Virus record (IMG/VR): IMGVR_UViG_3300005326_000030
Length of the DNA: 39,579 bases
Source of the DNA: a virus
Direction: 5' to 3' (one strand)
In this document: in pieces, positions 15,601 through 35,768 of the stretch
Numbering within the stretch: position 1 is the first letter of the stretch
Layout: each line of letters starts with the position of its first letter
The notes under the pieces: model-generated
What the model saw: only the letters and a program-made list of their open reading frames with translations
Told to the model about the DNA's origin: nothing
Databases searched by the model: none
Program-made: the position numbers and the translations under genes

Positions 15601-17164
15601 CTTTTCTATCTATATCTGGGATGTTCTTAACATCTTTTATCGTTCCACCTTCTGTAAGTAATGCTTTAGCCTCTCCCATTAGTTGTTCGTTTGGTTTTTG
15701 TTCATATCCTTGTAAATTTAATCCTTGTTTAACTTTATTAGATACATTTGGTGCTTCTGATACTGATTGTTGAAATCCTCTTAACTTTAATGTTGGTTCA
15801 GTTGGTTGTTCTAATGGAACACTTTGTTTAATCTTTATAGTTGGTTGAGTTGATTCAGTCTTTATCTTAATAGTAGGTTCTTGTTTTATTTTAATCCCTT
15901 TACTCTCTGGTGATATTTGAGATGGTAAAAGATATTGTTTAATTCTTTCAAACAATTTTTTAATTTCAGCTAAATCTATACCCTCTCCTTGTGGTGTAGA
16001 TATAGATGGTTGTTTACCAACTATTCCCATTTGTATTTGTTCTCCACTAGCACTTAGATCAGTTAGTTTACTAGAAATCAATTTATATTGTTCTTCGAGA
16101 GATAATTTTTGCCAATCTTTTTTAGGCATTATATTAAATCCTTCATTATAGTCATTAGCTAGTTTTGAGGCTTGAGTTCTTAATTCTAAATTAGGAACAC
16201 CAGTTTTCTTTTCTTCGCTTAAAGCAGATAATACTTTTTTAGTTTGGTCTATATCTGATTGATAAAGTTTTCCATCACCCATACCTTTGACTTTAACTCC
16301 TGTATCAAATTGTGTTTTTCCGCCAATTAATCCAGTTACTAAATCAATTCCCATACTTAACGGAGTTGTTTTTTGACCAGTTGAAATATCTGAAACTATA
16401 CCTTGACCAACATTTGAGACTCCAGCAGTAATCCTATTAGCAGCTACTCCTTGAACAGGAGTAAAGTTTACAACTTTTGAGAGTAAAGGATTAGTTGCTT
16501 GAGAAACACCTGCAAATACTGGTGCATAAGCCAAACCAGTTCCAGCACCTTGAGCAAACGAACCGCCTTGGACTTTATTTATTCCACCACTAATACCAGC
16601 CATAGTTAAAGCAGTTTTTGCATTTAATTTTTGCCCACCAACTAAAGTGGCAGCAGTTCCCAAACCTTCACCTGCAATTTGTAGTCCAGTTTTATTATAA
16701 TCTTGTTGAACATTAGTTGCACCTTGTTGAGACAGTTGTTGATTTTGATTAGCTAAATTTAACCACCTTTGTCTTTCTTCTTGAGTTTTAGACTGGTTAG
16801 CCATTTTTAAAGCAGTATTAATATACTGTGAATATTGTTGAGTATTTTGTTGAAGTGTTTTATTTACATAAGGTGAAGCAGCAGTATTTCCTAATGTTTG
16901 TCCAAATTGAAATACTGGAGATGATTTTAGTCCAGCAGTAAAATCTTTTGCAGATTGAATATTCTTTACATCAGAAGCACCATAGGTATTTATTCCAATT
17001 AAATTATTGTTTTTTAGGGTATTAAAAGTATTTTTTACTGGTTGAAAAGTAAAATTACCTTGTCTAATCCAACCTTGATTATCATTCATTGACGAATTAA
17101 CAGACGAGCCAATGTTATTAGCTGTTTCTTTCAGCTTTTTTAGCAAATCTTTAATTCCAGCCAT
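12626..17164 (-). CDS. Giant internal virion / ejection-type protein, 1512 aa, with an HNH-like motif and a Lys-rich tail
   Basis: Largest ORF in the structural module. DHKIALTLGGSNDESNLQVLTNEENQIKG at aa 1263-1292. Last ~83 aa are a K-rich periodic tail. Confidence 0.55.
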   Translation of the reverse strand: MAGIKDLLKKLKETANNIGSSVNSSMNDNQGWIRQGNFTFQPVKNTFNTLKNNNLIGINTYGASDVKNIQSAKDFTAGLKSSPVFQFGQTLGNTAASPYVNKTLQQNTQQYSQYINTALKMANQSKTQEERQRWLNLANQNQQLSQQGATNVQQDYNKTGLQIAGEGLGTAATLVGGQKLNAKTALTMAGISGGINKVQGGSFAQGAGTGLAYAPVFAGVSQATNPLLSKVVNFTPVQGVAANRITAGVSNVGQGIVSDISTGQKTTPLSMGIDLVTGLIGGKTQFDTGVKVKGMGDGKLYQSDIDQTKKVLSALSEEKKTGVPNLELRTQASKLANDYNEGFNIMPKKDWQKLSLEEQYKLISSKLTDLSASGEQIQMGIVGKQPSISTPQGEGIDLAEIKKLFERIKQYLLPSQISPESKGIKIKQEPTIKIKTESTQPTIKIKQSVPLEQPTEPTLKLRGFQQSVSEAPNVSNKVKQGLNLQGYEQKPNEQLMGEAKALLTEGGTIKDVKNIPDIDRKVTAAMQEALNLDAAGKHDEAAALFNNLSDIGTELGRGVQAYSLLQKMSPQAISLSAAGQIKKYNRTAKVKLPELTGEQQKLISGQVEAIRNMVDGKEKNIALNQLEQTINSFIPSSKTDKFITVWKAGLLTSLRTHIRNIAGNTVMQGAEITSQAPAGFADYLMSLRTGQRTISPTLKGTVSGAKEGFGQSVDIMKYGFDPSKEISKFDVKKITWKNTPTDQALKKYTDFVFNTLSAEDKPFWQSSYSRSLYNQAGAEAMNQGKKGNTKVIQNLVNNASEAMKNQATIDANYATFKDKNMISNVAANFKRVMGSKWYGKLASEVVAPFTGVPSSMLTKTFDYSPLGLLNGIKDAGKVVTKNVPDLQRQAAQEIGRGTIGTGIFALGAYLAGKGLITGQPKDDAERKQWELEGKQANSILINSKWRSINSIGPQAIILLAGAKADEELNNPEGNIGKYGLSLVQDQLNQTFLAGVQQPLQAITDPTRYGKSYVGGQISSLTPNIVKDISKSLDPTQREVDTGTMGGNIKTSIQAGVPIWRNQMTPKRDTLGNILKQEPTGLGAFVDLFNSKTPISNNVVDELKRLNEGGYNATPSKITKNQTINGTKVVLDQKSLDQYEEEAGKAVSTSLEALFNSNSYQKLDDESKQEAIDKLVTAERKKVRANIDLKYMPDTGYVKSTDAPTSLGGKISVYGKSIVTDPGQTIKAVIAGNPIRKVEGGTVILERKNSLGTLDKGNTSTQIDHKIALTLGGSNDESNLQVLTNEENQIKGQFETYLYKEMKAGRITKEEAQKKDLNWREEVNKLPKAEQTKIANSLKDEAIDETSENVYKLVSEAGTVTTIDLGKEIEEPKLTGFTEVDKKLKSSYKSAITTRINNVVKLYEDGQLTAEEAEKYIKALKAKSSSTGSGKKLTIGKTPNLTIKKIASLKIKPVKIPKLAFKITSTKGKSLSKFKTTKSNKLTSLKLKKIKTPKLNLTLKAPIKSSALKVAMA

Positions 17165-18834: not shown

Positions 18835-19755
18835 TTATACATTACTAACTCCACTTATTTTTTTAATCTGATTAGATGTCGTTAAATATTTAATTATTAC
18901 CAATCCACTTCCACCATTTTTACCATAATAATAAGCATCATTTGGATAAGAACCACCACCACCTCCACCTCCAGTATTAGCAGCTCCAGCAGTTCCATCT
19001 TGACTATTTGTAGCACCATTACCACCACCACCATAACCACCATAACCAAAAACAGTAGCACTACCACCACCACCACCAGAAACATAATAAGTACCACCAA
19101 CATTATGACCAGAACTAGCAGCAGCCAATAAAGCAGAATAAGCAGCAGTACCAACTCCACCATTTCCAGCAACTCTGTTTGAAGTATTATTCGCACCAAC
19201 AGCACCAGCTCCGCCTCCACCAGCACCACCATAATCATTTGTAGTTCCTCCATTATATCCTTGACTACCAGTTCCACCAGTGGCATAAGATAAACCTCCT
19301 GCTCCACCTCCACATCCACCATTACGGCCAGCACTACCACCTGAATTTGTACCACCTCCTCCTCCTCCTCCAATAGCAGTTAGTGTTCCAAATACTGAAT
19401 TTCCACCGTCTCCACCTTGACCAACACCAGATGTATGACCAGCACCGCCTCCGCCAACAGTAACAGTATAAGTTTGTTGAGTTAAATCAAAAGAGTTGTT
19501 ATAAGCTACACCTCCACCTCCACCTCCACCTCCAAAATAACGTCCACCACCTCCACCTCCACCAACAACTAAAATTTCCGCTTTCCCTGTCCCATAAACC
19601 ACTAAACTACTTGTTTCTGTAAATTTATGAATAGTATAATTACCACTGGTAATAACTGTTCCGCCAGTACAAAAGAAATAATTATTAGTTTTTCCACTAA
19701 CTTTTTTAATTGTGGTTCTTGTCTTTCCAAAAGTTTTTTTAATTGCTATTGCCAT
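18835..19755 (-). CDS. Glycine-rich domain protein (fibre/structural)
   Basis: VVGGGGGGGRYFGGGGGGGG...GGGGGGGSYP...GGSGLVIIKY. This is the typical viral glycine-rich domain layout. Confidence 0.6.
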   Translation of the reverse strand: MAIAIKKTFGKTRTTIKKVSGKTNNYFFCTGGTVITSGNYTIHKFTETSSLVVYGTGKAEILVVGGGGGGGRYFGGGGGGGGVAYNNSFDLTQQTYTVTVGGGGAGHTSGVGQGGDGGNSVFGTLTAIGGGGGGGTNSGGSAGRNGGCGGGAGGLSYATGGTGSQGYNGGTTNDYGGAGGGGAGAVGANNTSNRVAGNGGVGTAAYSALLAAASSGHNVGGTYYVSGGGGGSATVFGYGGYGGGGNGATNSQDGTAGAANTGGGGGGGSYPNDAYYYGKNGGSGLVIIKYLTTSNQIKKISGVSNV

Positions 19756-21798: not shown

Positions 21799-21876
21799 TT
21801 TAAATTTAAATAATAAAAAACCTCCCAAACAAGGGAGGTATGCCTGTAAAAGGCTTTTACTATATTTATTATACCA
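21799..21876 (-). promoter_or_regulatory. Late cassette copy B: TGGTATAAT, 5 nt, TAGTAAAA, hairpin 1, hairpin 2, T-run
   Basis: TATAAT at 21868-21873. Hairpin 1 is GCCT-TTTAC-AGGC. Hairpin 2 is CCTCCC-TTGTTT-GGGAGG followed by T6. Confidence 0.65.
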
Positions 21877-21918
21877 AAATTGGTATTGTAATACTATTTT
21901 TTCTTTCCACCTTTACAT

Positions 21919-23034
21919 TTATTCATACATTACTTGGCAATTACAATTTGCACCTGAAATTACTAAATATAAACCATTAATGAATGGAATACCTGTATTA
22001 AATGATACATTAATAGGAATTGTTTGAGCACCCATAGCTCCTGTAGAATAAATTATCGTTCCAGTAGCCGAAGTATTATCATAAAGAGTTACTGTTGCGT
22101 TGTTATTAACTCCACTTAAATTTAAAGAATGAAGTGATCCAATTCCATTCTTAAGTAGGACTCCAGCAGTTGTTCCTTGCTGAAAGTAAAATTTAGATTG
22201 AGTTTTAGTATTTCCCCAAGTTAATATACTTAATACTTGAATATATAAATTAGCTGCTGATCCAACTCCTGTATTTATATTCTGAGCAAATGGTCTTAAA
22301 TGTCTAGTTCCACAAATTACAGAAGTAGTTTGAGTGAGAGTATGAATCAGGACTTTATCTATATAGAATTGAATACGTTTATTAGTATAAATAATTTCTA
22401 CAGTAGCAAAATTACTAGTTAAAGTATAAGTGGGAGAATCTCCATTAAAAGAACCACTATCAATTTTAATATCATTTAATCCAGTAGTTTTAGCACATAT
22501 AGAAAGGACTGATCCTTGTACCTGAAAATAAAATGAATCTGCTAAAGATGAAGAACTTGTAGCACCAAATCTCAAAGTATTATTAGTATATGAAGTTCCT
22601 CCTATTCTAATTATCCCCCTCAAATGATTCATTGATCCACCAATATATCTAGCAACAGAATTTGTGTAAACTAAAGCACTAGAACCACTATCAGTAGTGG
22701 TTGCGAGATTTAAAACACTGTTTGATATAGTAGCTGTTCCGTTAGCATTTAAGGAAGTAGTGTAAAAGTTCGTATCAGGGGTTGTTCCATTAAAGACTCC
22801 ACCAGCTACACGATTCTTTTCAGATACCATCATCTCATCAATCATTGTAGAACCTATTTCGTCACCCCATGAATCAAGAATACGAGAATATTGAAGTCCA
22901 TTAGTTTGATTAGCAGAAGTAGCTGGACTAACTACATTACCACTAACTCCATCAACAACAACTACTTTCTTAGCAGCTACACCATTAATCCATGCCCTTT
23001 CTTGCTGTGTTGACTCACTTACTATATTTCCCAT
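21919..23034 (-). CDS. Ser/Thr/Asn-rich structural protein, 371 aa (possibly receptor-binding or decoration)
   Basis: Long ORF in the structural module. No specific motif recognised. Many N-x-S/T triplets. Confidence 0.4.
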   Translation of the reverse strand: MGNIVSESTQQERAWINGVAAKKVVVVDGVSGNVVSPATSANQTNGLQYSRILDSWGDEIGSTMIDEMMVSEKNRVAGGVFNGTTPDTNFYTTSLNANGTATISNSVLNLATTTDSGSSALVYTNSVARYIGGSMNHLRGIIRIGGTSYTNNTLRFGATSSSSLADSFYFQVQGSVLSICAKTTGLNDIKIDSGSFNGDSPTYTLTSNFATVEIIYTNKRIQFYIDKVLIHTLTQTTSVICGTRHLRPFAQNINTGVGSAANLYIQVLSILTWGNTKTQSKFYFQQGTTAGVLLKNGIGSLHSLNLSGVNNNATVTLYDNTSATGTIIYSTGAMGAQTIPINVSFNTGIPFINGLYLVISGANCNCQVMYE

Positions 23035-23405
23035 TAAAATTCTCCATCAGCAATCGCACCGAGAGATTCAAGTATCTTGACTCTGCGATATAGATGTTCT
23101 AATTTAGACTCACCTACACTTGGACTGCCTAATTTGTAACTTAAATTTTCTATTTTCATAATTGCTTCATTTGTATCATTATTACCTTTCTTAGCCCAAT
23201 TAATTATTTGTTCTAACTTACCATCATAATCTGAATTAGATAGATTAAATAATTCTCTAAAAGGTCTTAAAGATAATTCATGTGCTACTTCTTTAGTTTC
23301 TTTTGAAGTATCAATAGTTGGACTTTTATATTCAGAACTTCCCAATTCATTTACTTTTTCCGCTATTGGTTCTACTTTTTTACCATCCTTATATACATTA
23401 TCCAT
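23034..23405 (-). CDS. Hypothetical protein, 123 aa
   Basis: ORF coupled to its neighbours. Confidence 0.5.
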   Translation of the reverse strand: MDNVYKDGKKVEPIAEKVNELGSSEYKSPTIDTSKETKEVAHELSLRPFRELFNLSNSDYDGKLEQIINWAKKGNNDTNEAIMKIENLSYKLGSPSVGESKLEHLYRRVKILESLGAIADGEF

Positions 23406-23412: not shown

Positions 23413-24108
23413 TTATACCAATTTTTGAGTAAGTTTAATAAATCTATCTAATTGTTTTTTATGGTTCTTATTATATTTAGAATATTTTTTATCATAATCC
23501 TCTTTCTTTAATTCAATATTTTCTGGTACTACTATTACTCTACACCCACAAAGCATAGCTTCATATATTAATTGAGTATCATCATCATAGGTATAGACTA
23601 TTCTAGTATTTTTAAGTAGATCAGCATAAGCCCAACGACTAGGACAATCTATTATTTCTCTCAATTCTTCAACCATTGGAACTCTTGGTTTCTTCCAACC
23701 TTTATTACGATAGAAGCAATCAAACTTATCATTAGTTCCTTTAGTAAATAGTTCTGGTTCTATAGTATTAACTGTTAATAGTGGTTTGTCTAAGTATTTT
23801 TTATACCAACTAAATTGCAACCCATCTTTAAATGGTTCACCACCTAAGAACCCTGGCTTATTTAATGCCCATCTAACGACTTTGTGGATACCTACTGGAT
23901 TACCAGCTATAATCTCAGGATAAACAACAATAAAGTCCTCTGTAATTTTTTCTTTAGTTATGAGTGGTTCGTTCCACAATGGATTAGGGGTTGAAGTACA
24001 ATATGCCTCGTATCCTCTTTCGTTAAGATCGTGGACAAGTTTGTGTAGGACTCTTACTCCATTAGAGTTGTCTCTGTAAATTGGTGTAACTACTACGTAT
24101 GGACTCAT
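23413..24108 (-). CDS. Putative compact glycosyltransferase-like protein, 231 aa
   Basis: ATGA-coupled to the transketolase C-subunit gene. C-terminal IYEAMLCGCRVIVVP resembles the GT-B EA..G.PV motif. Confidence 0.3.
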   Translation of the reverse strand: MSPYVVVTPIYRDNSNGVRVLHKLVHDLNERGYEAYCTSTPNPLWNEPLITKEKITEDFIVVYPEIIAGNPVGIHKVVRWALNKPGFLGGEPFKDGLQFSWYKKYLDKPLLTVNTIEPELFTKGTNDKFDCFYRNKGWKKPRVPMVEELREIIDCPSRWAYADLLKNTRIVYTYDDDTQLIYEAMLCGCRVIVVPENIELKKEDYDKKYSKYNKNHKKQLDRFIKLTQKLV

Positions 24109-24611
24109 TTGGTTAGACTAATGAATACTGGTTTGTTATTGTTTATTATAGTGTGTAATAGTTTCTCAATATCTTCTTTATCATCTGGGAAATAAGAAGT
24201 TATATTTGGAAAACATTTTAAAACCTGTTTACAGTCCTCTGATTGGTGAGTATAACCATCGTTTTCGTAAGTTTTATCTCTCCCAGCACCTAGGATCTTA
24301 ACTGGTATCTGTTCATAGTCTACATAGTTTCTAACCCACTCAAAAGTTCTATATAAAGAAAAATTAGTTATTGAATAAAAGAAAGGTATCTTACCTTCTA
24401 AAGCAAGTCCTATACATAATCCCATACCAGCCTGTTCTGCTGCACCACAGTTTATACATCTATCAGGAAAGTCCTCTATAATAGCGTCCCATTGTTTGTA
24501 ACCCAAATCTGCATAAACTAACCATATATCCTTATTGGCTTCCATTTCTTTGTGTAAGTAATAGGCTAAATACCCTCTCATTGAGTCGTGTGGTTTATTG
24601 AAGTTTGGCAT
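24105..24611 (-). CDS. Transketolase-like pyrimidine-binding subunit, truncated form, 168 aa
   Basis: ADLGYKQWDAIIEDFPDRCINCGAAEQAGMGLCIGLALEGKIPFFYSITNF matches the transketolase Pyr-domain pattern. The usual C-terminal domain is absent. Confidence 0.65.
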   Translation of the reverse strand: MPNFNKPHDSMRGYLAYYLHKEMEANKDIWLVYADLGYKQWDAIIEDFPDRCINCGAAEQAGMGLCIGLALEGKIPFFYSITNFSLYRTFEWVRNYVDYEQIPVKILGAGRDKTYENDGYTHQSEDCKQVLKCFPNITSYFPDDKEDIEKLLHTIINNNKPVFISLTK

Positions 24612-25206
24612 AGGTTTCTAAGTCTAAACAATTATAATGTCCGGGTATTCCTTTAAGTATCTCAGGACATCTGTATAAGGTTACTCTTGATACTACAACA
24701 TTAAAAAATGATTTAAGTCTACTTTCCAAGTAATCTATGTCTACTAATCCACAGGCACTTTGTCCATTAGCAACTACTACAACTTTTAGATTATTTAATT
24801 CTTGATCGTGAGCTATTTTAAGTGCTTCCCATATAGAACCCTCAGCACAAGCACCATCTGAAGTAACTAAATAGACATCTCTGTCTCTATTAGCCAAAGC
24901 CATACCAACTGCAATAGTTTCTGGTTGTCCTAGTGAGCCACCACTAACATAAACTCCGTGTTCTAAGTCTCTAAAAGCGTGTGTTCCATATTTATCTACC
25001 ATTTCTTCTGCGTTGCAAATTCCTCTATCTTCCAATACTACCCATAGAGCTAGTGCAGCATGGGAGTTACCCAATACAAATATATCATCTTGTTTCTTAA
25101 GCTGGTAAATCTTATCTATAATTGGCAAAGTAGTTAATACACTGCTTAGATGAGTAAGTTTTCTTGGATAACTAATATCAAAGACTCTCTTTTCTAATTT
25201 GGTCAT
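24595..25206 (-). CDS. Transketolase-like thiamine-diphosphate-binding subunit, 203 aa
   Basis: GNSHAALALW..., GGSLGQPETIAVGMALA and YLVTSDGACAEGSIWEAL match the transketolase N-subunit pattern GSLGQG / GDG..EG..WEA. Confidence 0.65.
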   Translation of the reverse strand: MTKLEKRVFDISYPRKLTHLSSVLTTLPIIDKIYQLKKQDDIFVLGNSHAALALWVVLEDRGICNAEEMVDKYGTHAFRDLEHGVYVSGGSLGQPETIAVGMALANRDRDVYLVTSDGACAEGSIWEALKIAHDQELNNLKVVVVANGQSACGLVDIDYLESRLKSFFNVVVSRVTLYRCPEILKGIPGHYNCLDLETYAKLQ

Positions 25207-25951
25207 AAGATTCCTCTATACTTTCAATTAATGATTTCTTTGGCAACCAACCCCAACTCCTAGCTTTAAAGTTAGTACATACCCAATTAGGAGTGTCATA
25301 TTTTCTTAATTGAGGTACTCTGGTAACCTTTAATTTTTTCTGAGTAATAAACTCTACTATTTCTAAAATTTTTTCATTAGTTGTGCTAACTCCACTCCCT
25401 AGTTCAAAAATACCTTTAGCTTGATTATCAGAGAGATTTAATATCCCACTAACGACATCAGAAACATCAATATAGTCATGACTACCATCACATAAGTTTA
25501 CAGGAGTATCATTGATTGCAGCCCTTATTAGAGTAGGAATTAAGTGTTTTGGACTATCACCAGCACCGCATATCGTATATGGCCTAATTATAGTTATTGG
25601 TAAGTGTAATTTTTCTAAATAACCCATCAAAATCTCCTCACTTGCCTTCTTAGTCCTTGAATACATGGTCTGGACTGGAAGTTTTACTGACGAAGTTGAT
25701 ATATAAACAAAGGATTTGAAATTTAAGTCTTTTACTTTGTTAATTATTGAGATTAGGTCTAGTAAATTAGCCTTTATGATTAAATCGTCGTCTGTGTGGT
25801 CGCTAATGTTGCCATAGGCAGAGCAAAATAGGAATTTATTAAAATTTTTAGGCTTAAAAGTATCTATTTCTTCATGAGGAATACAAACTGCGTCAATATT
25901 TTTTAGTAATTCTTGACCGAGAAAACCTGATCCCCCAGTTAAGTAGTTCAT
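25178..25951 (-). CDS. NAD-dependent sugar epimerase/dehydratase (SDR family)
   Basis: Rossmann motif TGGSGFLG at the N-terminus and catalytic YxxxK (YSRTK). Confidence 0.7.
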   Translation of the reverse strand: MNYLTGGSGFLGQELLKNIDAVCIPHEEIDTFKPKNFNKFLFCSAYGNISDHTDDDLIIKANLLDLISIINKVKDLNFKSFVYISTSSVKLPVQTMYSRTKKASEEILMGYLEKLHLPITIIRPYTICGAGDSPKHLIPTLIRAAINDTPVNLCDGSHDYIDVSDVVSGILNLSDNQAKGIFELGSGVSTTNEKILEIVEFITQKKLKVTRVPQLRKYDTPNWVCTNFKARSWGWLPKKSLIESIEESYDQIRKESL

Positions 25952-27042
25952 AAGTCTACAAATTTAACATCTAAAGATTTAATAACATTTAGAAAAGTTT
26001 TAGAAACTTCTTTAAGGTCTCTATTTTTCTTTACCCATTTAAAAGCATTGTCGGCAATACGTTTTCTTTCTTGTGGATTATCGATTAGATACTTAACTTG
26101 TTTGTAAAAATCATTGGTATAAAGTAACCCATTATCATTATGTTTAATATCAGCCGAGTAAGGAAGCATATTTTTAGCAACAGTAGGAATACCTAAAGCA
26201 GCCGTTTCATAATACTTGATAGAACTCTTATTAGTATTGAATTCATTATCTTCTAAAGGACAGATAGCAATATCAGCATTGATTGTAGCCAATCTATATC
26301 CATGTCCATCTGCTGTGATCCAACCGTCTTTGTGGACTCTTGATTGGTCCATGTCTTTAGTTATACCTTCAAAAGGATTACCGAGGATATATAAGTGTAG
26401 ATTAGGATATTCTTTCATTAATCTTTCTAAATCGTCTCTTATTGAAAACATATCTCCATAGTGGGAACTACCACCAGACCAAAGTAAACGAATCTTATCA
26501 TCTTTCTTAATATCTAATCTAGGAAATATATCAAGATTTACAGCATTTGGGACAACAACTACATTTTTATTAAAAGGTTTAATAGTATCAGCTAGTTTAC
26601 TTGTAGTAGTTGTAACTACATTTGCTTTAGTAAGACAGTATTCGTAGTCTATTAAAGCTCTACGATTACGATATGGATCAAAGTGTTTATCTTCTACCCA
26701 TAGAGGTTTTCCATCTGGTAAGTAAACTTCTTTTGTACCACCAAATGAATAAGCATCACTAAAAGGACTAATATTAAATAAGTCATCATCAGTATCAAAG
26801 ATTATTTTCTTTTTTGGATAGTATTCTTTAATCTCTCTAATAAATTGAGTTACATTTTTAGTTGAAGGTCTTAAATAAAAAACATCAGAATCTTTAATTG
26901 CTTCCATTATATCTTTCTCACTCCAAGTATCTATATCAACTTCCTTTATCTCTACTTCGTTAGATATTGCTTTAGTTATCTGCATTATGCGATACCAACT
27001 ACAACCATCAATTCTATGCTTATGGACAAATAGTTTCATCAT
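25948..27042 (-). CDS. GT-B fold (GT4-like) glycosyltransferase, 364 aa
   Basis: EFNTNKSSIKYYETAALGIPTVA...NGLL matches the E..(7)E/GT1 C-terminal motif. Start set at the ATG that overlaps the upstream stop (ATGA). Confidence 0.65.
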   Translation of the reverse strand: MMKLFVHKHRIDGCSWYRIMQITKAISNEVEIKEVDIDTWSEKDIMEAIKDSDVFYLRPSTKNVTQFIREIKEYYPKKKIIFDTDDDLFNISPFSDAYSFGGTKEVYLPDGKPLWVEDKHFDPYRNRRALIDYEYCLTKANVVTTTTSKLADTIKPFNKNVVVVPNAVNLDIFPRLDIKKDDKIRLLWSGGSSHYGDMFSIRDDLERLMKEYPNLHLYILGNPFEGITKDMDQSRVHKDGWITADGHGYRLATINADIAICPLEDNEFNTNKSSIKYYETAALGIPTVAKNMLPYSADIKHNDNGLLYTNDFYKQVKYLIDNPQERKRIADNAFKWVKKNRDLKEVSKTFLNVIKSLDVKFVDL

Positions 27043-27350
27043 ATATTTCGTGTGTCTCCTTTGACTACCTTCCACTCTTTATAATGTTCAAAAAAATCTT
27101 TATCTTTAAAATAATCTGGTCCATACATCTTAGTAAACCACTCATCTACTTCAATGGGGATAGTTGCTATTTTAATCCAGTGTGCTTTACCAGTACGTTT
27201 ATGTCCTGCAAGATATTGTTCCTTTCGTAGAGATTGTTGAATAACACCTTTTGGATCAGTGGCTTGTTTTATTCCTAATTCTTTATTTTTATTAACACTA
27301 TCAATAACTTTATTGATTACTTTTAGTTCTTCTGTATTAAATGTAGCCAT
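27039..27350 (-). CDS. Hypothetical protein, 103 aa, downstream of the capsid gene
   Basis: ORF with its own promoter-like element. Confidence 0.5.
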   Translation of the reverse strand: MATFNTEELKVINKVIDSVNKNKELGIKQATDPKGVIQQSLRKEQYLAGHKRTGKAHWIKIATIPIEVDEWFTKMYGPDYFKDKDFFEHYKEWKVVKGDTRNI

Positions 27351-27393: not shown

Positions 27394-27419
27394 GTCTAGG
27401 ACAGTTTCCCATCCTAGAC
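27394..27419 (-). terminator. Stable hairpin directly after the major capsid gene, no U-run
   Basis: GTCTAGGA / TCCTAGAC, an 8-bp stem with a 10-nt loop. Confidence 0.4.
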
Positions 27420-27429: not shown

Positions 27430-28317
27430 TTAGGCTAAAGTTACTAAACCACATCCAGCTTCCTGTCTCATCTCTAGGGTAAGAGCAGTTTCTACGACAC
27501 CTCTTGTGGTAGATGCGATTTTAGCAGCATCTACTTTGTGAGTTGGAATAGCAACAGCAACTTTACATAGATCAGATTGAACAGTAAGGATTTTACCGGC
27601 AGTAATAAAACGATCAGCAACAATCTTTACTCGTCCGAAGTCTGAATCATAAACATCCACTCCGCTAATAACTTCTTTAGAGTCTTGATTCATAAACTTA
27701 GTAGAGCTAGCTGTGAAATCAGAGATTGCTCTCTTAGCAGTAGCATTTACATAAGTAGTATCAGGACGACCACCAGCTGTCCAAATTGCTTGGAGGTTGG
27801 TGTTGAAAAGATATTCTGGAGAAGAAGAACCTGTGCCTGAATAGAATCCACTACCAGTATTGGTGGCAATGAAAGCTAAAGCACCTTTAAGTTCACGAGC
27901 AGTACCGCTTGCACCGCTTGCACCAGTTCCAGTGAAAAGAGCTAGTTCAATGTCTCTAGCTTGTTCTTTCATGGCTTTGGCCATTTGGTAAGCGTACATA
28001 TCGTCCATACCTGCTGGATTCATAGCTCTTTCAAAATCAGTTACTTCAACGAAGTTTCTGAAAGTTTGAACATAAGCACCAGTTCGTGCAGGAGTCGTCT
28101 TAACAGCGAACGAATAATCTTGCCCTTCAATTTGGGCATTAGCTGTAGCACTAGCAAGAGAGTCAGTAGACCACTCATGGTAAGCACCACTAGCTTTGGT
28201 TTTTCCACATGAACTAAAAAAAGGAGTCTCAGTTGGAGAGATATTTGTTATCACATCCAAAAGGTCTTCACGATTAGTAGTCGCATGGAATGAGGAAATA
28301 GCTGTTCCTGAAGCCAT
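27430..28317 (-). CDS. Major capsid protein (HK97-fold, SU10/DUF5309-like type)
   Basis: The N-terminal signature NREDLLDVITNISPTETPFFS is typical of this capsid family. Position follows the scaffold gene. Confidence 0.75.
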   Translation of the reverse strand: MASGTAISSFHATTNREDLLDVITNISPTETPFFSSCGKTKASGAYHEWSTDSLASATANAQIEGQDYSFAVKTTPARTGAYVQTFRNFVEVTDFERAMNPAGMDDMYAYQMAKAMKEQARDIELALFTGTGASGASGTARELKGALAFIATNTGSGFYSGTGSSSPEYLFNTNLQAIWTAGGRPDTTYVNATAKRAISDFTASSTKFMNQDSKEVISGVDVYDSDFGRVKIVADRFITAGKILTVQSDLCKVAVAIPTHKVDAAKIASTTRGVVETALTLEMRQEAGCGLVTLA

Positions 28318-28374: not shown

Positions 28375-29133
28375 TTAGATAATATCTTTTAAGTAGGCTG
28401 CCCAATCATCTGTACTTCCAGTATTTCTAGCTTTCTGTAGTCTTTGACGACTTTCATCATTACTAGTGTCAGGCCTATTTGATGTAGGCGTTACTGCAGC
28501 ATTAGCGATTGTTTTAGCCATACTTGAAGCGGCCTCTGCTTGGCCGTTGCTTTCACCTAATTTGATAACCCCTTTTAACTCGTTGTAGAGTTCTTTAGGA
28601 CTCATCTTAGGACGAAAAGCTCCAGATTCGTCATAATTAAGAGATGCATATAACTTAGTGTATTTAGAATCAAAATTCTTATCACTAAATTCAGGTGCAT
28701 CTACAAGCTCTCCTAATTCAGATTGATGTGCTCCAACTGTTTGTCTAAAACCTTGTTCCTGTCTATCTTTGGCGATAGCTAACTGTGTAACAGTCATTAT
28801 TTTATTATTTAACTGTTCTATGGTTATTTCACCATCATTAGCCTCTGTTTGTTGGTTGGTCTGCCACCATGGAGGTAGTTGATTGCCAAAAACATCGTTA
28901 TTATATTGAGGTTGAGGTTCTGACAACTCCTTTACTTTAGAAGTAAGTTGTTGAATCCTTCTCTCTGCCCTAGTTGGCCTATAACTATCTGACTCTTTCT
29001 GAGGTTCTTCCGGTGAGTTATTAGCTTCTTCCGAATTAACTTCTTCCTGAGTGGTTTCTAGTTCAGTTTGCGAAACTTCGTTGGTTTCCTCAACGACTGG
29101 TGTTTCCACCACAGCATTGTTTTGTTCGTCCAT
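28375..29133 (-). CDS. Scaffolding protein
   Basis: Acidic, low-complexity N-terminus and helical remainder. Lies between the portal and capsid genes. Confidence 0.5.
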   Translation of the reverse strand: MDEQNNAVVETPVVEETNEVSQTELETTQEEVNSEEANNSPEEPQKESDSYRPTRAERRIQQLTSKVKELSEPQPQYNNDVFGNQLPPWWQTNQQTEANDGEITIEQLNNKIMTVTQLAIAKDRQEQGFRQTVGAHQSELGELVDAPEFSDKNFDSKYTKLYASLNYDESGAFRPKMSPKELYNELKGVIKLGESNGQAEAASSMAKTIANAAVTPTSNRPDTSNDESRQRLQKARNTGSTDDWAAYLKDII

Positions 29134-29775: not shown

Positions 29776-31713
29776 TTATCTCCCTCCTAATAATGATTGA
29801 GCGATCTGTTGTAATTCAGGATCTTTTATATTTCCCATGATCTGTGCAGAATCTACACCCTGTCCATTACCAGGCATCATAGATTGTTCTTGAGATGGTT
29901 GAACTGGTTGTCCTTGTCCTTGCATTTCAGGTGGTATTCTCTGTGGTGTTTGTCCTTGAATTGGTTGACCATCTGGACCTGCTTGTACTTGTGGTGGTTC
30001 TGGTTTAAAGTCAACAACTATTTTATCTGAATCTTTAGTACCCGAAGTAATGATGTATCGTTTAACTAATTCAGAGAAGTCAATATCTTTTCCTTTAGTT
30101 TGCATCATTTGTAATAGAGTTGAACCAAATGGAGTTCCAAATAATTGAATTATTGCAGTTAGTGATTGATTTTCTTCCATAGCATCTTTTTGTAATGTAG
30201 TTCCGGCATCAATAAAGAATCTAAACTTACCTTTAAGCATTTCCGGTTTGATTCTGTACTTACCTTCACCATTTTGTGAGTATATTTCTTCAATATCGGG
30301 ATAGATTTCTTTAATTTGTTCAATTTCACCACTAAATAAGTTAATATCAATTGGTTTAGCTTGATTAGAAGCAATCATTTCAATCATTCGATCATAAAGT
30401 TCCTCTACAAAGTCTTCCATTGTCTGTCTTTCCCATGAATCAGCGGCACTTTCCTTCATCTGTTGCATTTTAAGGGCTTGTGGAGTCTTGCCTTGAGTCA
30501 TATCTACATTCTTAGACACACTCATATCAGTAGAACCCAATAAGTTGTTTAAAGAACTTAGAATCATACCCGATAAGTTATTAGCAGTGTTAATATCTTC
30601 ATTCCCATTAACTAAAGGACGGATAGAGTTAGGGATTGTTTCTTCCCATATAGCACCAGCCCTACGATTTAAAGTATTTTTAACTACACCTTTAGGATTT
30701 ACAACTGTAATAGGGAATAATTTATTCTTTGCACTATCAAGAGTTAAGTTGATAATAGAGTTTTGAGTAAGTTGAAGTGGTTTACCTCTTTCAGTATCAG
30801 ACCAACCAGTACATCTATCTAACATTGGAACTGTTTGTTTGATGATGATTGGAAGTTTACCATTTTGATGTGGGTTATCTATTTCTCTAAGTATTCCTGC
30901 TTGTGGGAACTTAGGAGCATAAGTAATCCAACTATCACGAGTGTATTTAGTTCTAATAAGTACACCTTCTAAATCAACATTGTATTTGGCTTCATTATAA
31001 GATTGATTGACATAGGTTATCTTTTCCTTTTGTTCTTTAACTGCTTTGACTAAGATATCAATATTCTTCCAAGTAGATTTAGGTAAGTGTTTAAGCCAAC
31101 CTAATGGTTGTAATTGGTCTACAAAACAATAGTCTTGGTCATCATCTTGGAATACTCCTGGTTGTGGATAGTATCTATCAATAGGAATAAGCCAAAAGTC
31201 AGGGCCAACATAAGTATCTGATACAACATAATCAACTAAAACAGGTTGTTTCCCATATATCTGAGAATTAATAGAAGTTAGTTTCAACTTCATTAAGTGT
31301 TTATATTGGGAATTAGAATTAGGAATAATATATCTTTGGAGAATTAGATTTAGTAATTGGTTCTTACCTCTGTCTTTACGATCTAAGTAATCAACTTTAC
31401 CAGTAGCAGGTTGAGCTGTTATTCTTTGAGTTCTTTGGATAATAGCAGTAGACAAGTGTCCATCATTAACATTTGATTTACTATTCTCAGCAGCTTTACC
31501 TTTGTCTTGATTATAGAATACTTCTTCATTCTCACGCCATTCTGGTCTGATTATATTCAACGCACTATCGCAATATTGCCATTCACTTTCCATTTTAGTT
31601 ATCAACTCATCTTCTGTTTCTGTTTTCTTAGGTTTTGTATCCTTAAACAAATCAACTGTATTATCTTTCTTAACTTCCTTAACTGTTTTCTTTTTCTTTA
31701 ATTTTTTAGGCAT
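29776..31713 (-). CDS. Portal protein, 645 aa
   Basis: Called on size and on position after TerL. Start trimmed to MPKKLKKKK; the upstream codons lie inside cassette A hairpins. The C-terminal tail is Q/P/G-rich. Confidence 0.6.
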   Translation of the reverse strand: MPKKLKKKKTVKEVKKDNTVDLFKDTKPKKTETEDELITKMESEWQYCDSALNIIRPEWRENEEVFYNQDKGKAAENSKSNVNDGHLSTAIIQRTQRITAQPATGKVDYLDRKDRGKNQLLNLILQRYIIPNSNSQYKHLMKLKLTSINSQIYGKQPVLVDYVVSDTYVGPDFWLIPIDRYYPQPGVFQDDDQDYCFVDQLQPLGWLKHLPKSTWKNIDILVKAVKEQKEKITYVNQSYNEAKYNVDLEGVLIRTKYTRDSWITYAPKFPQAGILREIDNPHQNGKLPIIIKQTVPMLDRCTGWSDTERGKPLQLTQNSIINLTLDSAKNKLFPITVVNPKGVVKNTLNRRAGAIWEETIPNSIRPLVNGNEDINTANNLSGMILSSLNNLLGSTDMSVSKNVDMTQGKTPQALKMQQMKESAADSWERQTMEDFVEELYDRMIEMIASNQAKPIDINLFSGEIEQIKEIYPDIEEIYSQNGEGKYRIKPEMLKGKFRFFIDAGTTLQKDAMEENQSLTAIIQLFGTPFGSTLLQMMQTKGKDIDFSELVKRYIITSGTKDSDKIVVDFKPEPPQVQAGPDGQPIQGQTPQRIPPEMQGQGQPVQPSQEQSMMPGNGQGVDSAQIMGNIKDPELQQIAQSLLGGR

Positions 31714-31787
31714 AGTTTTTAAACAAAAAAAAGCTCTCACTTCTGAGAGCATTCCCGTACAGGGATTTTACTAATTACATTATATCA
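31714..31787 (-). promoter_or_regulatory. Late cassette copy A: TGATATAAT, 5 nt, TAGTAAAA, hairpin 1, hairpin 2, T-run
   Basis: TATAAT at 31779-31784. Hairpin 1 is TCCC-TGTAC-GGGA. Hairpin 2 is GCTCTCA-GAAG-TGAGAGC followed by T8. Confidence 0.65.
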
Positions 31788-32105
31788 TGGTTGTTTGTCT
31801 AGTGGATATTGTTTCTTAATATTCCTTTGTAGATAAACATCTTTTATATTACCTTTATTAAATTTCATAGTAAAAGTAAACATTCCAGACTCTTGTTTAG
31901 TAAATAAATCTTTTATTTCACTTAATACTAATGAAGTTGCTTCTGTATTCTCTCCATCTTTAAACTTTACTCTTTGAAATTGTTGTCCTTGGACTCCAAC
32001 TATCTTATCTTGGAATATCTCTAAAGTTAAATTAAGACTACCATAGTGTTGGGTATTGCATTGTTTCTCTATATCTATAAAAGGAATTAGATTAAGTGTT
32101 TCCAT
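31785..32105 (-). CDS. Hypothetical protein, 106 aa
   Basis: ORF whose start overlaps the TerL stop. Confidence 0.5.
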   Translation of the reverse strand: METLNLIPFIDIEKQCNTQHYGSLNLTLEIFQDKIVGVQGQQFQRVKFKDGENTEATSLVLSEIKDLFTKQESGMFTFTMKFNKGNIKDVYLQRNIKKQYPLDKQP

Positions 32106-33352
32106 TAATAATATGTTTTAGTAATAAATGAAGTATCTGGGTAACTGTCATTAGTATCAGTTGGTTTATTGTAACTCATTACAAAGTATCTAATTGCGTC
32201 CATAGCATCGTCATCTCTCTTTAAAGGGACTTCTTTTATTGATCCACCACTCTTATTATCCAACCATCTATACTTTTCAAACTCATCAGCTATCCATGTT
32301 AAGTTCTTACTAAACATTAAAGTTGGTTTTCCAGTATCATTTCTAATCTTTAACATCTCAGCAACTTTGACTATTCCATTCTTCACTGAATCTTGTCCTT
32401 TCTCTATTGGAGTAAATAAGCATCCAAACTCTTGAAGTTGTTTAATACTCATTGGTTGAGCTGAATCGGCTACTGAAGTTGTTATTACCTTACCGGCATC
32501 TTTAATATTTGCTATATCAGCTATCTCTTTCTCTATTAGTCCTGATTGGTAGATTCCATCATAAGCATAAATAGCAGTACCAGTTGAATTGATAGCAAAG
32601 TAAACCAAGGCGGTCTTGTGACTGAATCCAAAGTCTAATGAACGACAGTAAGTATAGTTATAATCTAACTGAGGAACGTCAACCATGTGGATATCTCTGT
32701 TGAAATCTTTGTAAATTAAACCTGACATCTTTCTAAATTCACCCATGATCTCTTGTGCAAAACTATCTTCATCCATTTCTTTCTTCATGGCCTCAATTTC
32801 TTCTACTGGTATATGAGGATTGTCATAAGTTGTATAGTGATGATAAGACCAATCAGGATCATTCATCTCACTTAGTTCTTTAAAGTGATTGAAACCATTA
32901 GGTGTAGATATAAACCAAACATTTGCTTTACTATCAGCAAGAGTAGGTCGTACTACTTTCCATACTTCATCCCAATGGTCAATAAAAGCAGTTTCATCAA
33001 ATATACATAAATCTATTCTTACACCTCTTAGTGAATCAGGGTTATCAGCTCCCTTTAAGAATATTTGTGATCCATTAAGTAGTTCGATATACAGTTCTGT
33101 TTCATTTGTTCGTTTAATAGCCTCTGGTGGAACAAGTTCTTTAAGCATTGACCACATGATAGCTTTACTTTGTTTATAAGTTGGGGATACATACCAAACA
33201 ATACTCTTTTCTTTCTCTGTTGCAAATCTTAATATCTCTACACTAACTAAATACGATTTCCCTGCACGCCTGCCACAATTTATTACCTTAAAACGGTGAT
33301 TGTCATTGAATACTTGAGTTTGCCAATATGTTAATTTAAGTTTCTTTTTCAT
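32105..33352 (-). CDS. terL: Terminase large subunit
   Basis: Walker A CGRRAGKS, Walker B LCIFDE, and C-terminal nuclease acidic motifs (LDFGFS, VADSAQP, DDAMDAIRY). Confidence 0.9.
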   Translation of the reverse strand: MKKKLKLTYWQTQVFNDNHRFKVINCGRRAGKSYLVSVEILRFATEKEKSIVWYVSPTYKQSKAIMWSMLKELVPPEAIKRTNETELYIELLNGSQIFLKGADNPDSLRGVRIDLCIFDETAFIDHWDEVWKVVRPTLADSKANVWFISTPNGFNHFKELSEMNDPDWSYHHYTTYDNPHIPVEEIEAMKKEMDEDSFAQEIMGEFRKMSGLIYKDFNRDIHMVDVPQLDYNYTYCRSLDFGFSHKTALVYFAINSTGTAIYAYDGIYQSGLIEKEIADIANIKDAGKVITTSVADSAQPMSIKQLQEFGCLFTPIEKGQDSVKNGIVKVAEMLKIRNDTGKPTLMFSKNLTWIADEFEKYRWLDNKSGGSIKEVPLKRDDDAMDAIRYFVMSYNKPTDTNDSYPDTSFITKTYY

Positions 33353-33778: not shown

Positions 33779-34000
33779 TTAATAACTTCTTCTACCACTT
33801 GGTTCGTCAATACTTATAATTGGACCAAATTTTAGTTTTTCACAATGATTACATCGTCTTAACATTCCATACTCATTTACTTTTGCCGGATTCTTTTCAC
33901 ATATAAGACATAGAACAATACCTTTACTATTTACTTTAGCTCTACTTATTTCTGATTCGTTTAAATCTTTAATTGTTGGCATATTTGAATATAAATCCAT
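33779..34000 (-). CDS. Small zinc-ribbon protein
   Basis: CLICEKN...CNHCEK. The start may instead be M7 at 33982. Confidence 0.45.
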   Translation of the reverse strand: MDLYSNMPTIKDLNESEISRAKVNSKGIVLCLICEKNPAKVNEYGMLRRCNHCEKLKFGPIISIDEPSGRRSY

Positions 34001-34238
34001 GAGTAGATTGTCTTCTACCTATTAAAACTCTACTAATCATATCAGATCTTATAAATAAACATCTTGAAGCTTCGTTAATACTATCCCAAATAGTTAATTC
34101 GTTTCCTTGTAAATCTAATTGTTTAATTCTTTTTCTTAAACTAATTTCTTTCTTTCTTCTATTAGCCTCACATTTCTTACATAGTTTTATATTTCCATTA
34201 CTAACTTTCTTTTTACATTTAGAACATTGATATGTCAT
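33969..34238 (-). CDS. Zinc-ribbon plus NUMOD1/IENR1-like DNA-binding protein
   Basis: CSKCKKK..CKKCE, then WDSINEASRCLFIRSDMISRVLIGRRQSTHGFIFKY. The second segment is the motif of homing-endonuclease DNA-binding modules. Confidence 0.5.
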   Translation of the reverse strand: MTYQCSKCKKKVSNGNIKLCKKCEANRRKKEISLRKRIKQLDLQGNELTIWDSINEASRCLFIRSDMISRVLIGRRQSTHGFIFKYANN

Positions 34239-34317
34239 CTACAAGTAAAAATAAATAACCATGCCGGACTAGTTACTATTATTCCTAATATAATTTCTAA
34301 AAAATAGATTAGTTTAT

Positions 34318-34515
34318 TCATAGTGTTTTATCTGCATTAACAGCTACTAGATAATTACCATCTTTCGAATTTTTATGTCTTCTAATATTAGCTGGAGTTG
34401 AATAAAATATTATTGTTTTTCTTTTAATATTAAATTGTTTAGCTAGTTCAGTGGCAGTACCCATACCTATTATATTTTCTCCCTTATATAAGAAATAATA
34501 TGTTTCACTTTTCAT
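34318..34515 (-). CDS. Small HTH protein, 65 aa
   Basis: GTATELAKQFNIKRKTIIFY is HTH-like. Confidence 0.45.
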   Translation of the reverse strand: MKSETYYFLYKGENIIGMGTATELAKQFNIKRKTIIFYSTPANIRRHKNSKDGNYLVAVNADKTL

Positions 34516-34607
34516 ATAAATCTACAAAACTTAAATACTAATACCCAAATAGCACAAAATAATATTAATCCAGTAATAGTTTGTAAACAATGATTTAGTC
34601 TATTCAT
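34512..34607 (-). CDS. Micro-ORF, 31 aa, hydrophobic
   Basis: Hand translation gives MNRLNHCLQTITGLILFCAIWVLVFKFCRFI. Its start overlaps the upstream TAG stop by 8 nt and its stop overlaps the next start as ATGA. Confidence 0.35.
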   Translation of the reverse strand: MNRLNHCLQTITGLILFCAIWVLVFKFCRFI

Positions 34608-34947
34608 CTTTATTATTAAGTAAATTAAATAACTCCTTGTTTAATTTCTCTGGGTCTATCACATCAAAATCTCCAGTAGGCGATTGAACTTGAACCCAAC
34701 AACTTCTAATAATTAAACTGACATCACCTAATAGTTCTGTTCTTTGTTGGGTAAGGATTTTTCTTTTAATATACTTTCTATTAATTAATTCATAAGCACT
34801 AATAGCATCATAACTATCATCAGCACCATGATAAGCTACACTTTTTAGAATATCCATTAATTCTTTATCTTCTACTATTGGTGGTTTATAGTTTGGATTA
34901 ACTTTTTCTTCTTTCTCCCAATGTAATTCTTTAGGTTTTTGTTTCAT
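34600..34947 (-). CDS. Hypothetical protein, 115 aa
   Basis: ORF in the early array. Confidence 0.55.
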   Translation of the reverse strand: MKQKPKELHWEKEEKVNPNYKPPIVEDKELMDILKSVAYHGADDSYDAISAYELINRKYIKRKILTQQRTELLGDVSLIIRSCWVQVQSPTGDFDVIDPEKLNKELFNLLNNKDE

Positions 34948-35041
34948 AATTGTTTTCCATATCTTAATATTAGATATAGTCTATAAATTTTCAACCATAT
35001 CTGTTCCCATAATGGTTGTGTTTTTTTATAATCTGAATATT

Positions 35042-35299
35042 TCATTTCATTTTTCCTTTTGATTGAATGGATAAAAGTTTTTTTTCTGGAATATCCCATA
35101 TTTTAGTTTGAGCATTATATTCAACATTTCTTAAAACTTCTTTAATTCCAGACTTATATGCTTTTTGTATTTGGTCAGCAAATAAAGTCTTTAATTTACT
35201 ATTCCACACCTTACTTTCTGCTTCGCTACAGTCCATTTCAAAAGTAATTTTATCTATTTCTTTCACCGCTTCTGATTGTAATTTTGATAGGGTTTTCAT
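35042..35299 (-). CDS. Hypothetical protein, 85 aa
   Basis: ORF in the early array. Confidence 0.5.
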   Translation of the reverse strand: MKTLSKLQSEAVKEIDKITFEMDCSEAESKVWNSKLKTLFADQIQKAYKSGIKEVLRNVEYNAQTKIWDIPEKKLLSIQSKGKMK

Positions 35300-35454
35300 A
35301 ATTCTATATTAATTTTTGCATTAAGAAATTTTTTAGTAAAAAGAATTTGAATAACACACCATAAAAACCATAGTCTATTTTTAAGTGGTAGTCTATTAAC
35401 TTTAATTTCTATTTTCTTTTCTTTATCTTTTGTCATATTAGATTTTGTTTTCAT
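35296..35454 (-). CDS. Small ORF, 52 aa, with a hydrophobic segment
   Basis: Hand translation gives MKTKSNMTKDKEKKIEIKVNRLPLKNRLWFLWCVIQILF... ATGA overlap with the next gene. Confidence 0.35.
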   Translation of the reverse strand: MKTKSNMTKDKEKKIEIKVNRLPLKNRLWFLWCVIQILFTKKFLNAKINIEL

Positions 35455-35462
35455 ATGGATTG

Positions 35463-35768
35463 TCATTTTGTTTTAATTACAGTTCTAATAATAAATTGGT
35501 TTAGGATTTTTCCATATCTCTTAAAAACATAGGTGTCTAAATCTAACTTATGGTCAACTTCTAGACTATAACCAAATAAATTATTTAGAATACTAAATCT
35601 AAAACGCTTGATTAACTGTAACTGCCATTTAGGAATAAATGGAATAATTTGACTGTCAATCAATCTTGCCTTTTGAGTAGCAATATTATTAACTCTTGAA
35701 TACAAACTATTTCTAAATTTAAAAGTCTTAAACTTTATCTCTCTATTATCTTGTTTAATGTTTTTCAT
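35463..35768 (-). CDS. Hypothetical protein, 101 aa
   Basis: ORF in the early array. Confidence 0.5.
   Translation of the reverse strand: MKNIKQDNREIKFKTFKFRNSLYSRVNNIATQKARLIDSQIIPFIPKWQLQLIKRFRFSILNNLFGYSLEVDHKLDLDTYVFKRYGKILNQFIIRTVIKTK

Follow-up and report, generated by a model that had tools for sequence, protein, structure and literature searches.

The 39,579-nt stretch of viral DNA analyzed here (IMG/VR record IMGVR_UViG_3300005326_000030, called the window in its full length) carries on its minus strand, at positions 23,413–27,042, an island of five coupled genes that very probably forms a sugar-tailoring and glycosyl-transfer module. In order of transcription the genes encode a GT-B glycosyltransferase (GT), a short-chain dehydrogenase/reductase (SDR), the two subunits of a thiamine-diphosphate (ThDP) enzyme and a second, compact transferase, and they are located in the head module, one small gene past the major capsid gene. 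The virion is the best-supported target of the module, and the statement as a whole, that of a late-expressed glycosylation module combining tailoring, transfer and a virion target, is given a probability of about 0.5.

The first gene of the island (25,948..27,042, minus strand; 364 aa from the ATG at 27,042) was assigned to the GT-B glycosyltransferases by Pfam (Glyco_trans_1_2, 26.1 bits with a cut-off of 25; Glycos_transf_1, 26.2 bits with a cut-off of 26.4) and by PHROG (phrog_7162, "glycosyltransferase", 1e-33); its family is called GT375 below. The last gene (23,413..24,108, minus strand; 231 aa), from which the family name p231 is taken, encodes a product that the preliminary description of this DNA had considered GT-like. 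That label was recovered by fold and not by sequence family, as p231 matched no family in Pfam, PHROG or NCBIfam, while its AlphaFold2 (AF2) model (pLDDT 88.4) matched GT-B/GT4 structures in Foldseek with a probability of 1.0 and a TM-score of ~0.5. These matches included the A. minor glucosyltransferase, PimA, BshA and MshA, and also viral GTs, and p231 is predicted, by fold only, to be a compact GT-B glycosyltransferase. No transmembrane-like segment was found in the five island proteins (maximum Kyte-Doolittle 19-residue mean of 1.3), and the island unit contained no lipid-carrier, flippase or polymerase gene.

The second gene (25,178..25,951, minus strand; 257 aa) encodes a short enzyme resembling the extended-SDR nucleotide-sugar epimerases and reductases. 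It matched Pfam Epimerase at 2e-14 (53.9 bits, gathering threshold 20.9) and phrog_540 at 4e-26, with the Rossmann motif TGGSGFLG at residues 5–12 and a YxxxK motif of which the Tyr and Lys were conserved in 115 homologues. Typical members found by a PDB search exceed it in length by ~60 residues, and the NCBIfam models for LegB, RmlB and GalE gave weak matches, all far below their cut-offs.

The third and fourth genes encode the PP-domain (N) subunit (24,595..25,206, minus strand; 203 aa, shorter than a full transketolase N domain) and the Pyr-domain subunit (24,105..24,611, minus strand; 168 aa) of a ThDP enzyme. The PP subunit matched Transketolase_N at 8e-6 over about positions 55–203 of 334, the NCBIfam transketolase model at 4e-20 and the split transketolase 6yak at 9e-12, its SDGACAEG...ANG aligning to GDGEIQEG...YNG; the metal/cofactor motif SDG...EG..WEA...N and three histidines were conserved in 87 homologues. 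The Pyr subunit matched Transket_pyr at 3.5e-21 over positions 5–169 of 174, 6yaj at 7e-16 and DXS at 9e-13, and its cofactor-activating Glu59 (GAAEQ) was invariant in 27 and in 90 homologues. The PP-domain metal motif and the Pyr-domain Glu place the pair in the ThDP-dependent transketolase/DXS/E1 superfamily, and since both are conserved the two-subunit enzyme is probably active. The best solved relative of both subunits was the split transketolase of Carboxydothermus, followed by DXS. The pair is nevertheless not a transketolase in the strict sense, because the C-terminal domain is missing (Pfam gave no Transketolase_C match to any part of the island), the N domain is cut short and the equivalog models were missed by hundreds of bits (NCBIfam transketolase models gave at best 71.6 and 37 bits where 488 are required; dxs gave 40 where 466 are). 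What was first described as a split, transketolase-like ThDP pair is accordingly retained at the level of the superfamily, as a minimal two-domain enzyme without the third transketolase domain and outside every curated equivalog. A phosphonopyruvate or sulfopyruvate decarboxylase was set aside for the pair, as the Pyr subunit was strongly Transket_pyr and only the PP subunit gave weak matches (1e-5 and 5e-4). With profile searches run on all five proteins, the GT-B, SDR and ThDP classes proposed earlier hold at the superfamily level.

The five open reading frames (ORFs) were all present on the minus strand with the boundaries first given to them, and the junctions, read on the sequence, agreed with the coupling by ATGA or by overlaps of 17–29 nt that had been reported. 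ATGA overlaps join the preceding 103-aa gene to the GT375 gene, the GT375 gene to the SDR gene and the Pyr-subunit gene to the p231 gene; the SDR and PP-subunit genes overlap by 29 nt and the two subunit genes by 17 nt. These are not chance ORFs, as independent JGI and Logan contigs carry the same genes in identical or near-identical form and homologous gene sets were found in many other phage contigs. The major capsid gene (27,430..28,317, minus strand) is the upstream neighbor of the unit and is of the SU10 type, based on Pfam (SU10_MCP, 9e-76) and on tblastn to annotated capsid genes. The island lies one small gene past it and ahead of the collagen-like fiber gene.

The transcription unit likely comprises the 103-aa gene (27,039..27,350, minus strand), the island, a 123-aa gene (23,034..23,405, minus strand) and a 371-aa gene (21,919..23,034, minus strand), with boundaries drawn from two hairpins in the sequence. 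The first, read directly after the capsid stop (27,394..27,419, minus strand), is an inverted repeat with an 8-bp stem, a 10-nt loop and no T-run, and may be an attenuator or RNA-stability element setting the ratio of capsid to downstream expression. The second (21,820..21,839, minus strand), an intrinsic-terminator-like hairpin with a T-run, closes the unit after the 371-aa gene. Within the unit, promoter- and terminator-like sites showed no enrichment in a consensus scan. An extended -10-like sequence, TGGTATAAT, is located in 21,840–21,918, 3' of the 371-aa gene, and is followed by the terminator hairpin; the next gene begins ~10 nt past the T-run (ATG at 21,798 rather than TTG at 21,828).

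An exact terminal direct repeat of 123 bp (positions 1–123 and 39,457–39,579) indicates that the window is a complete phage genome, the repeat reflecting either a circular assembly or terminal redundancy. Pfam and PHROG scans covered the ORFs of this genome, including all of at least 101 aa. Among these ORFs Pfam detected no integrase, as had been noted before, and no DNA polymerase, non-ERF recombinase or hydroxymethylase, and neither Pfam nor PHROG detected a base-modifying enzyme. The earlier picture, in which a phage devoid of lysogeny genes carries a sugar-modification island within its late structural operon, is supported.

Comparison with relatives showed that the island of the window is a local instance of a conserved, widespread and undescribed type of locus. 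Relatives were sampled by the portal protein alone, and hence blind to the island, with an alignment-based query (a single-protein capsid query retrieved nothing from IMG/VR); this gave 15 distinct loci having at least 4 kb after the capsid gene. (All loci discussed below, whether or not they belong to these 15, carry numbers with L.) A GT375-family gene followed the capsid gene in nine of the 15 (roughly 60%), two had ThDP genes at the contig edge and four had none, and GT375 was the most conserved element of the locus among relatives. One relative, L002, with a portal 84% identical, had the same five genes plus a TylF-like methyltransferase gene and different downstream fiber genes; it also had a 35% homologue of the 123-aa protein. 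L007, L008 and ~20 others, with portals 32–35% identical, had the SDR, PP and Pyr genes, extra genes (an FkbM-type methyltransferase and unknowns), and then p231 and GT375. In these, the sugar block stood directly between the capsid block and a homologue of the 443-aa protein encoded further downstream in the window, with no fiber genes, so that in this region the fiber genes are lineage-specific and the sugar genes the older residents. At its smallest (L105–L107 and L113) the locus consisted of GT375 without tailoring genes, between homologues of the 103-aa and 443-aa proteins, while L114 had p231 and GT375 without ThDP genes. The place beside the capsid gene is shared by a broad set of SU10-like podophages. 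The order capsid, 103-aa gene, GT was kept in relatives, and homologues of the 103-aa protein were labeled in L002, L098, L105–L107 and L113.

Other companions of GT375 were a UDP-glucose dehydrogenase (L140), a nucleotide pyrophosphatase (L101) and an Asn-synthase-like amidotransferase (L014). The Manatee Spring podovirus MW202801.1 (L011) had a different sugar island in the same post-capsid position (5006–9669), with an Fe-S oxidoreductase, a second GT, a PhyH dioxygenase, a methyltransferase, a NodB-like protein and a GT375 homologue. Further GT375 homologues were found in the Streptomyces phages KimJongPhill and Zuko, that of KimJongPhill lying just ahead of the small terminase gene, together with genes for a methyltransferase and a UDP-glucose dehydrogenase. 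The p231 and GT375 pair occurred in more than 20 phage loci and in one Actinomycetota metagenome-assembled genome (MAG); the closest cellular homologue of p231 (48%), in an Actinomycetota MAG, stood beside GT1, GT2 and methyltransferase genes. Among isolated phages (INPHARED) there was no close homologue of p231 or of the Pyr subunit, and hence no experimental model.

The preliminary description had seen the island as inserted between the capsid and fiber genes, and this part is not upheld, as GT375 is near-core at the locus in relatives and the adjacent fiber genes are its lineage-specific part. The G+C content of the island (0.30–0.35) is close to that of its flanks and gives no hint of a recent foreign insertion. 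The divergence of GT375 and p231 followed that of the portal (Spearman rho of 0.63 and 0.76), in the same range as the capsid (0.71) and the 443-aa protein (0.84), whereas that of the Pyr subunit (0.14) and the SDR (0.21) did not; these correlations are rough, with pairs that are not independent and labels that come from our own HMMs and simple ORF calls. The values fit a pattern in which the transferases pass down together with the virion module and the genes for donor tailoring are exchanged.

For the chemistry, the donor and the acceptor, the following route is proposed. The island has neither a kinase nor a nucleotidyltransferase and must therefore start from a sugar activated by the host. 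The PP and Pyr subunits would probably assemble as an (alpha-beta)2 enzyme which, together with the SDR, would turn a nucleotide-sugar or a sugar phosphate of the host into an unusual sugar. Most likely a keto group would be made or reduced by the SDR and a two-carbon unit added to it by the ThDP enzyme, giving a C-branched or chain-extended sugar. Sugars would then be transferred by the soluble GT-B enzymes GT375 and p231 to an acceptor in the cytoplasm. The most probable acceptors are one or several virion proteins of the same operon (the capsid, the 103-aa protein or the fibers), which would yield glycosylated virions. We put the odds that the virion is the target at about even. The arguments for it are co-expression with head genes, the soluble nature of the enzymes, the lack of lipid-carrier machinery and of lysogeny genes, the conserved synteny, the co-divergence with virion genes and the positions of the GT genes in the mycobacteriophages Corndog and Che8, which are described below.

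The SDR and ThDP genes also occur as a triad in other settings. The short Pyr-subunit family comprised 215 clusters in the protein database, and the triad was present in at least 476 IMG/VR stretches. Among 80 fetched loci whose neighborhoods were read, ~23 were of the capsid-module type and ~27 were long contigs in which GT, SDR and methyltransferase-sized genes form arrays. Another ~30 came from a second phage lineage, unrelated to the first, that has the triad directly ahead of its terminase genes. In 10 of the ~19 second-lineage loci with at least 3 kb of upstream sequence (L020, L033, L039, L040, L043, L044, L058 at 6948–10,492, L060, L061 and L087), the genes next upstream of the triad encode a GHMP sugar kinase and a nucleotidyltransferase. 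In species-representative genomes, close homologues of the triad were detected only in uncultured lineages, namely Levy-, Davies-, Roizman- and Collier-bacteria and other Patescibacteria, Omnitrophota, Gammaproteobacteria MAGs and one Actinomarina genome, and the direct homologues of Patescibacteria, Omnitrophota and other uncultured MAGs were 46–56% identical. Two cellular contigs were examined, one from Levybacteria, and both have the triad in surface-glycan clusters, the other genes of which include GT2/GT4, PMT_2/YfhO, methyltransferases, a dTDP-sugar isomerase, a GHMP kinase and a nucleotidyltransferase. The link of the triad to activated-sugar metabolism is well supported by these kinase, nucleotidyltransferase and glycan-cluster neighbors. 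L173 (CAZSXP010000007.1, 40,987 bp, binned in a Gammaproteobacteria MAG) and L172 are phage-sized contigs in MAG bins, so that part of the cellular distribution of the Pyr subunit may be mis-binned phage.

Several points weigh against a virion target. The island lacks a kinase and a nucleotidyltransferase, the capsid protein has no obvious Ser/Thr-rich tail, the distance correlations are rough, and a glycan on the virion proteins is predicted from the genes. GT4-type enzymes typically act on lipid-linked or soluble glycans. GT375 and p231 showed no similarity to Che8 gp108–110 or Corndog gp36–38, which include the essential GTs Che8 gp110 and Corndog gp38, by blastp or profile search. The closest cellular relatives of every island gene sit in cell-surface glycan clusters, and no recognizable GT was found within 10 kb of the triad in the second phage lineage, which suggests a product that host transferases can use.

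The last two points argue for a remodeling of the host envelope, in which an unusual activated sugar would be added to a host surface glycan late in infection. The glycan could be an O-antigen or capsule unit, a teichoic acid or an S-layer glycan, and the island could feed the host's own glycan pathway; receptors could be masked so that progeny carrying the 371-aa protein avoid debris and infected cells. Split or partial transketolase genes have been reported from surface-glycan loci in bacteria, in the hypervariable region of Fonsibacter/SAR11 (10.1101/672428) and in the Wzx/Wzy cluster wps-2 of Actinoplanes (PMC13390465), and the second-lineage phages combine the kinase, the nucleotidyltransferase, the SDR and the ThDP pair. 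Such bacterial loci resemble the window in bringing together SDR, methyltransferase and GT genes, but they are cellular, have membrane GT-C/Wzx/Wzy proteins, and their published transketolases keep the C-terminal transketolase domain. A literature search for transketolase in O-antigen or capsule clusters gave generic matches only.

The envelope explanation also draws on the 371-aa protein, which in the window shares one predicted transcription unit with the island and is predicted to bind carbohydrate. Its AF2 model (pLDDT 85.5) has 30–50 disordered N-terminal residues, a ConA/GH16-like jelly roll and a second beta-sandwich, and matched in Foldseek the lectin Emp47p, GH16 enzymes, legume lectins, the receptor-binding domain of phage TM4 gp23 and clostridial toxin binding domains. 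The C-terminal module was kept and the N-termini were variable among 72 homologues; with L002 only the N-terminal 45 aa were shared. The model is consistent with a lectin-like receptor-binding protein with a swappable N-terminal anchor. A GH16 hydrolase was considered as well, but the catalytic ExDxxE motif was not seen in the sequence, and the lectin-like reading is therefore preferred. The preliminary description had proposed this protein as the glycan acceptor, being rich in Ser, Thr and Asn. The richness is real (32.3%, the highest of the proteins tabulated), but the fibers are not far behind and such a composition is ordinary for them, so that the protein is not singled out. No support was found for it as an acceptor, and in relatives its gene is not linked to the island.

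That lack of linkage also speaks against a remodeled envelope, as do the absence of any membrane protein, lipid-carrier transferase, flippase or polymerase, the tie of expression to head genes shortly before lysis, and the want of lysogeny genes. The transferases, moreover, appear to be inherited with the virion module, whereas swapping would be expected for host-specific glycans. Taking both sides together, we regard envelope remodeling as possible but rather unlikely.

Another cytoplasmic target (a host protein, a small molecule or a storage glycan), modified for takeover or evasion of defense, would suit soluble GTs and the presence of the small-molecule GT4 enzymes BshA and MshA among the fold matches. 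The conserved head-module placement and the co-divergence with virion genes speak against it; it has no precedent in the literature searched, and is considered improbable. Glycosylation of hydroxymethylated bases of the phage DNA, as in T4, is rejected as very improbable: the T4 beta-glucosyltransferase is a GT-B enzyme and a weak fold match of p231 (rank 29), and DNA-glycosylating viral GTs are reported to be diverse (10.1101/2023.12.21.572611), but the scanned ORFs of the complete genome include no deoxynucleoside monophosphate hydroxymethylase, cytosine methyltransferase, TET/5mYOX, DNA polymerase, nucleotide-metabolism or other base-modifying gene, and the transferase genes are in the late head operon. 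Equally improbable is an auxiliary metabolic gene (AMG) of central carbon metabolism, in which a "transketolase" would boost the pentose-phosphate pathway for nucleotide synthesis, as the viromic literature counts tkt (PMC4053976); it is rejected on domain content, with the third domain and much of the N domain missing and all transketolase equivalog cut-offs far out of reach, and on neighborhood, as in the loci examined the ThDP genes were almost always beside an SDR gene, with GTs or with a kinase and nucleotidyltransferase, and in the two cellular contigs with glycan genes and not pentose-phosphate genes.

Seroconversion of the Gtr type was also rejected. Gtr cassettes consist of membrane proteins acting on periplasmic lipid-linked sugars, lie beside integrase/att and are expressed in lysogens. 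GtrABC/O-acetylase cassettes have in common with the island that a glycan modification is phage-encoded, but none of their membrane, integrase or lysogen features was found at the island, which has no membrane proteins and belongs to a complete genome with no integrase.

A virion target for the island finds its closest parallel in mycobacteriophages. In the literature searched, phage-encoded virion glycosylation was demonstrated only in a few actinobacteriophages, and two sources (PMC12363180 and PMC12619734, both citing Freeman et al. 2023) report it for Che8, Corndog and Myrna, with glycans on capsid or tail-tube proteins. In Corndog, the genes for a methyltransferase (gp35) and three GTs (gp36–38) are located between the portal region and the major head gene gp41; in Che8, GT genes gp108–110 are just ahead of the HNH/terminase end. 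As in the window, the GT genes (with a methyltransferase gene in Corndog) are in or beside the virion structural module, the proteins appear to be soluble and are proposed to coat capsid or tail proteins with glycan. The parallel drawn earlier with mycobacteriophages holds in the head-module position of the Corndog GTs and fails in sequence, as the transferases of the window are not homologous to theirs. The island further differs in its additional donor-tailoring pathway (SDR and ThDP enzyme), and an actinobacterial host is almost certainly not shared, because the window represents a podophage of 32% GC.

For the tailoring step, the nearest systems are those in which ThDP enzymes branch nucleoside diphosphate-keto sugars, namely YerE/YerF (yersiniose) and the alpha-KADH2 pairs of aldgarose, avilamycin and kibdelomycin (PMC12247030). 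In miharamycin and amipurimycin, a keto sugar is proposed to gain its hydroxyacetyl branch through an oxidoreductase and a split-gene transketolase, a step unproven in vitro (PMC12247030). The island shares with these systems a redox enzyme and a ThDP carboligase in a sugar cluster, and a ThDP enzyme split in two. Its subunits are, however, much shorter (203 and 168 aa), lack the transketolase/E1-beta C-terminal domain and are not specifically assignable to transketolase, DXS or E1. Chloroviruses and giant viruses encode their own glycosylation machinery (PMC9614988, PMC7019647), and there, as proposed here, the virus brings both sugar-nucleotide tailoring enzymes and GTs, which decorate its own capsid or fibrils; the fold matches of p231 include GTs of giant viruses and archaeal viruses, a likeness at the level of the GT-B fold only, and unlike the window these viruses have eukaryotic hosts and large genomes. 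Set beside these systems, the locus of the window is one of phage-encoded glycosylation with non-homologous transferases and an uncharacterized minimal ThDP cassette.

A 7.5-kb query gave no nucleotide-level match to GenBank phages, and the closest annotated capsids were ~37% identical. The minus strand of the window carries nearly all genes. Its late region runs from the large terminase (32,105–33,352) through the SU10-type portal (29,776–31,752), the scaffold (28,375–29,133) and the capsid to the 103-aa gene, the island and the 123-aa and 371-aa genes, and continues with a BppU_N-like 130-aa protein, the collagen-like fiber (557 aa), a glycine-rich protein (306 aa), the 443-aa protein, a 1512-aa protein, an SU10-adaptor-like protein and a 664-aa protein. 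Two glycine-rich proteins are encoded in the tail/fiber region, at 18,835–19,755 (32% Gly, matching Gly_rich_2 and phrog_2295) and at 7290–8399 (25% Gly). The Pfam and PHROG scans further gave ERF, lysins (CHAP and SLT-like) and HNH endonucleases. Endonuclease genes or domains of the HNH or NUMOD type were found at 8402–8884, 5809–6264 and 33,969–34,238, and an HNH/EndoVII-like segment forms residues 1249–1332 of the 1512-aa virion-module protein (12,626–17,164). At 2757–4463 (plus strand) and 6303–6719 lie the sole plus-strand gene block, which includes an SLT_3 lysozyme-like protein, and a CHAP-domain lysin gene on the minus strand. The G+C content of the early region (1–2000 and 34,000–39,579) was 0.24–0.27, clearly below that of the late region (0.31–0.41).

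Taken across relatives, it is conceivable, though at somewhat less than even odds, that a large group of uncultivated aquatic podophages glycosylates its own virions with a vertically inherited GT375 transferase (with or without p231) and exchanged donor modules, one of them the C-branching or chain-extending ThDP module. If the locus does glycosylate virions with enzymes unrelated to those of actinobacteriophages, virion glycan coats would be widespread in environmental phages, and coats diversifying as O-antigens do would be a trait of phages in general, not one peculiar to actinobacteriophages. Such a coat could alter adsorption, particle stability, stickiness, grazing, and recognition by antibodies or lectins. 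The short SDR and two-subunit ThDP cassette is a candidate for a new sugar-branching system, and it cautions against counting such ThDP genes as pentose-phosphate AMGs; if the proposed chemistry is true, many "viral transketolase" AMG calls would be sugar-branching enzymes.

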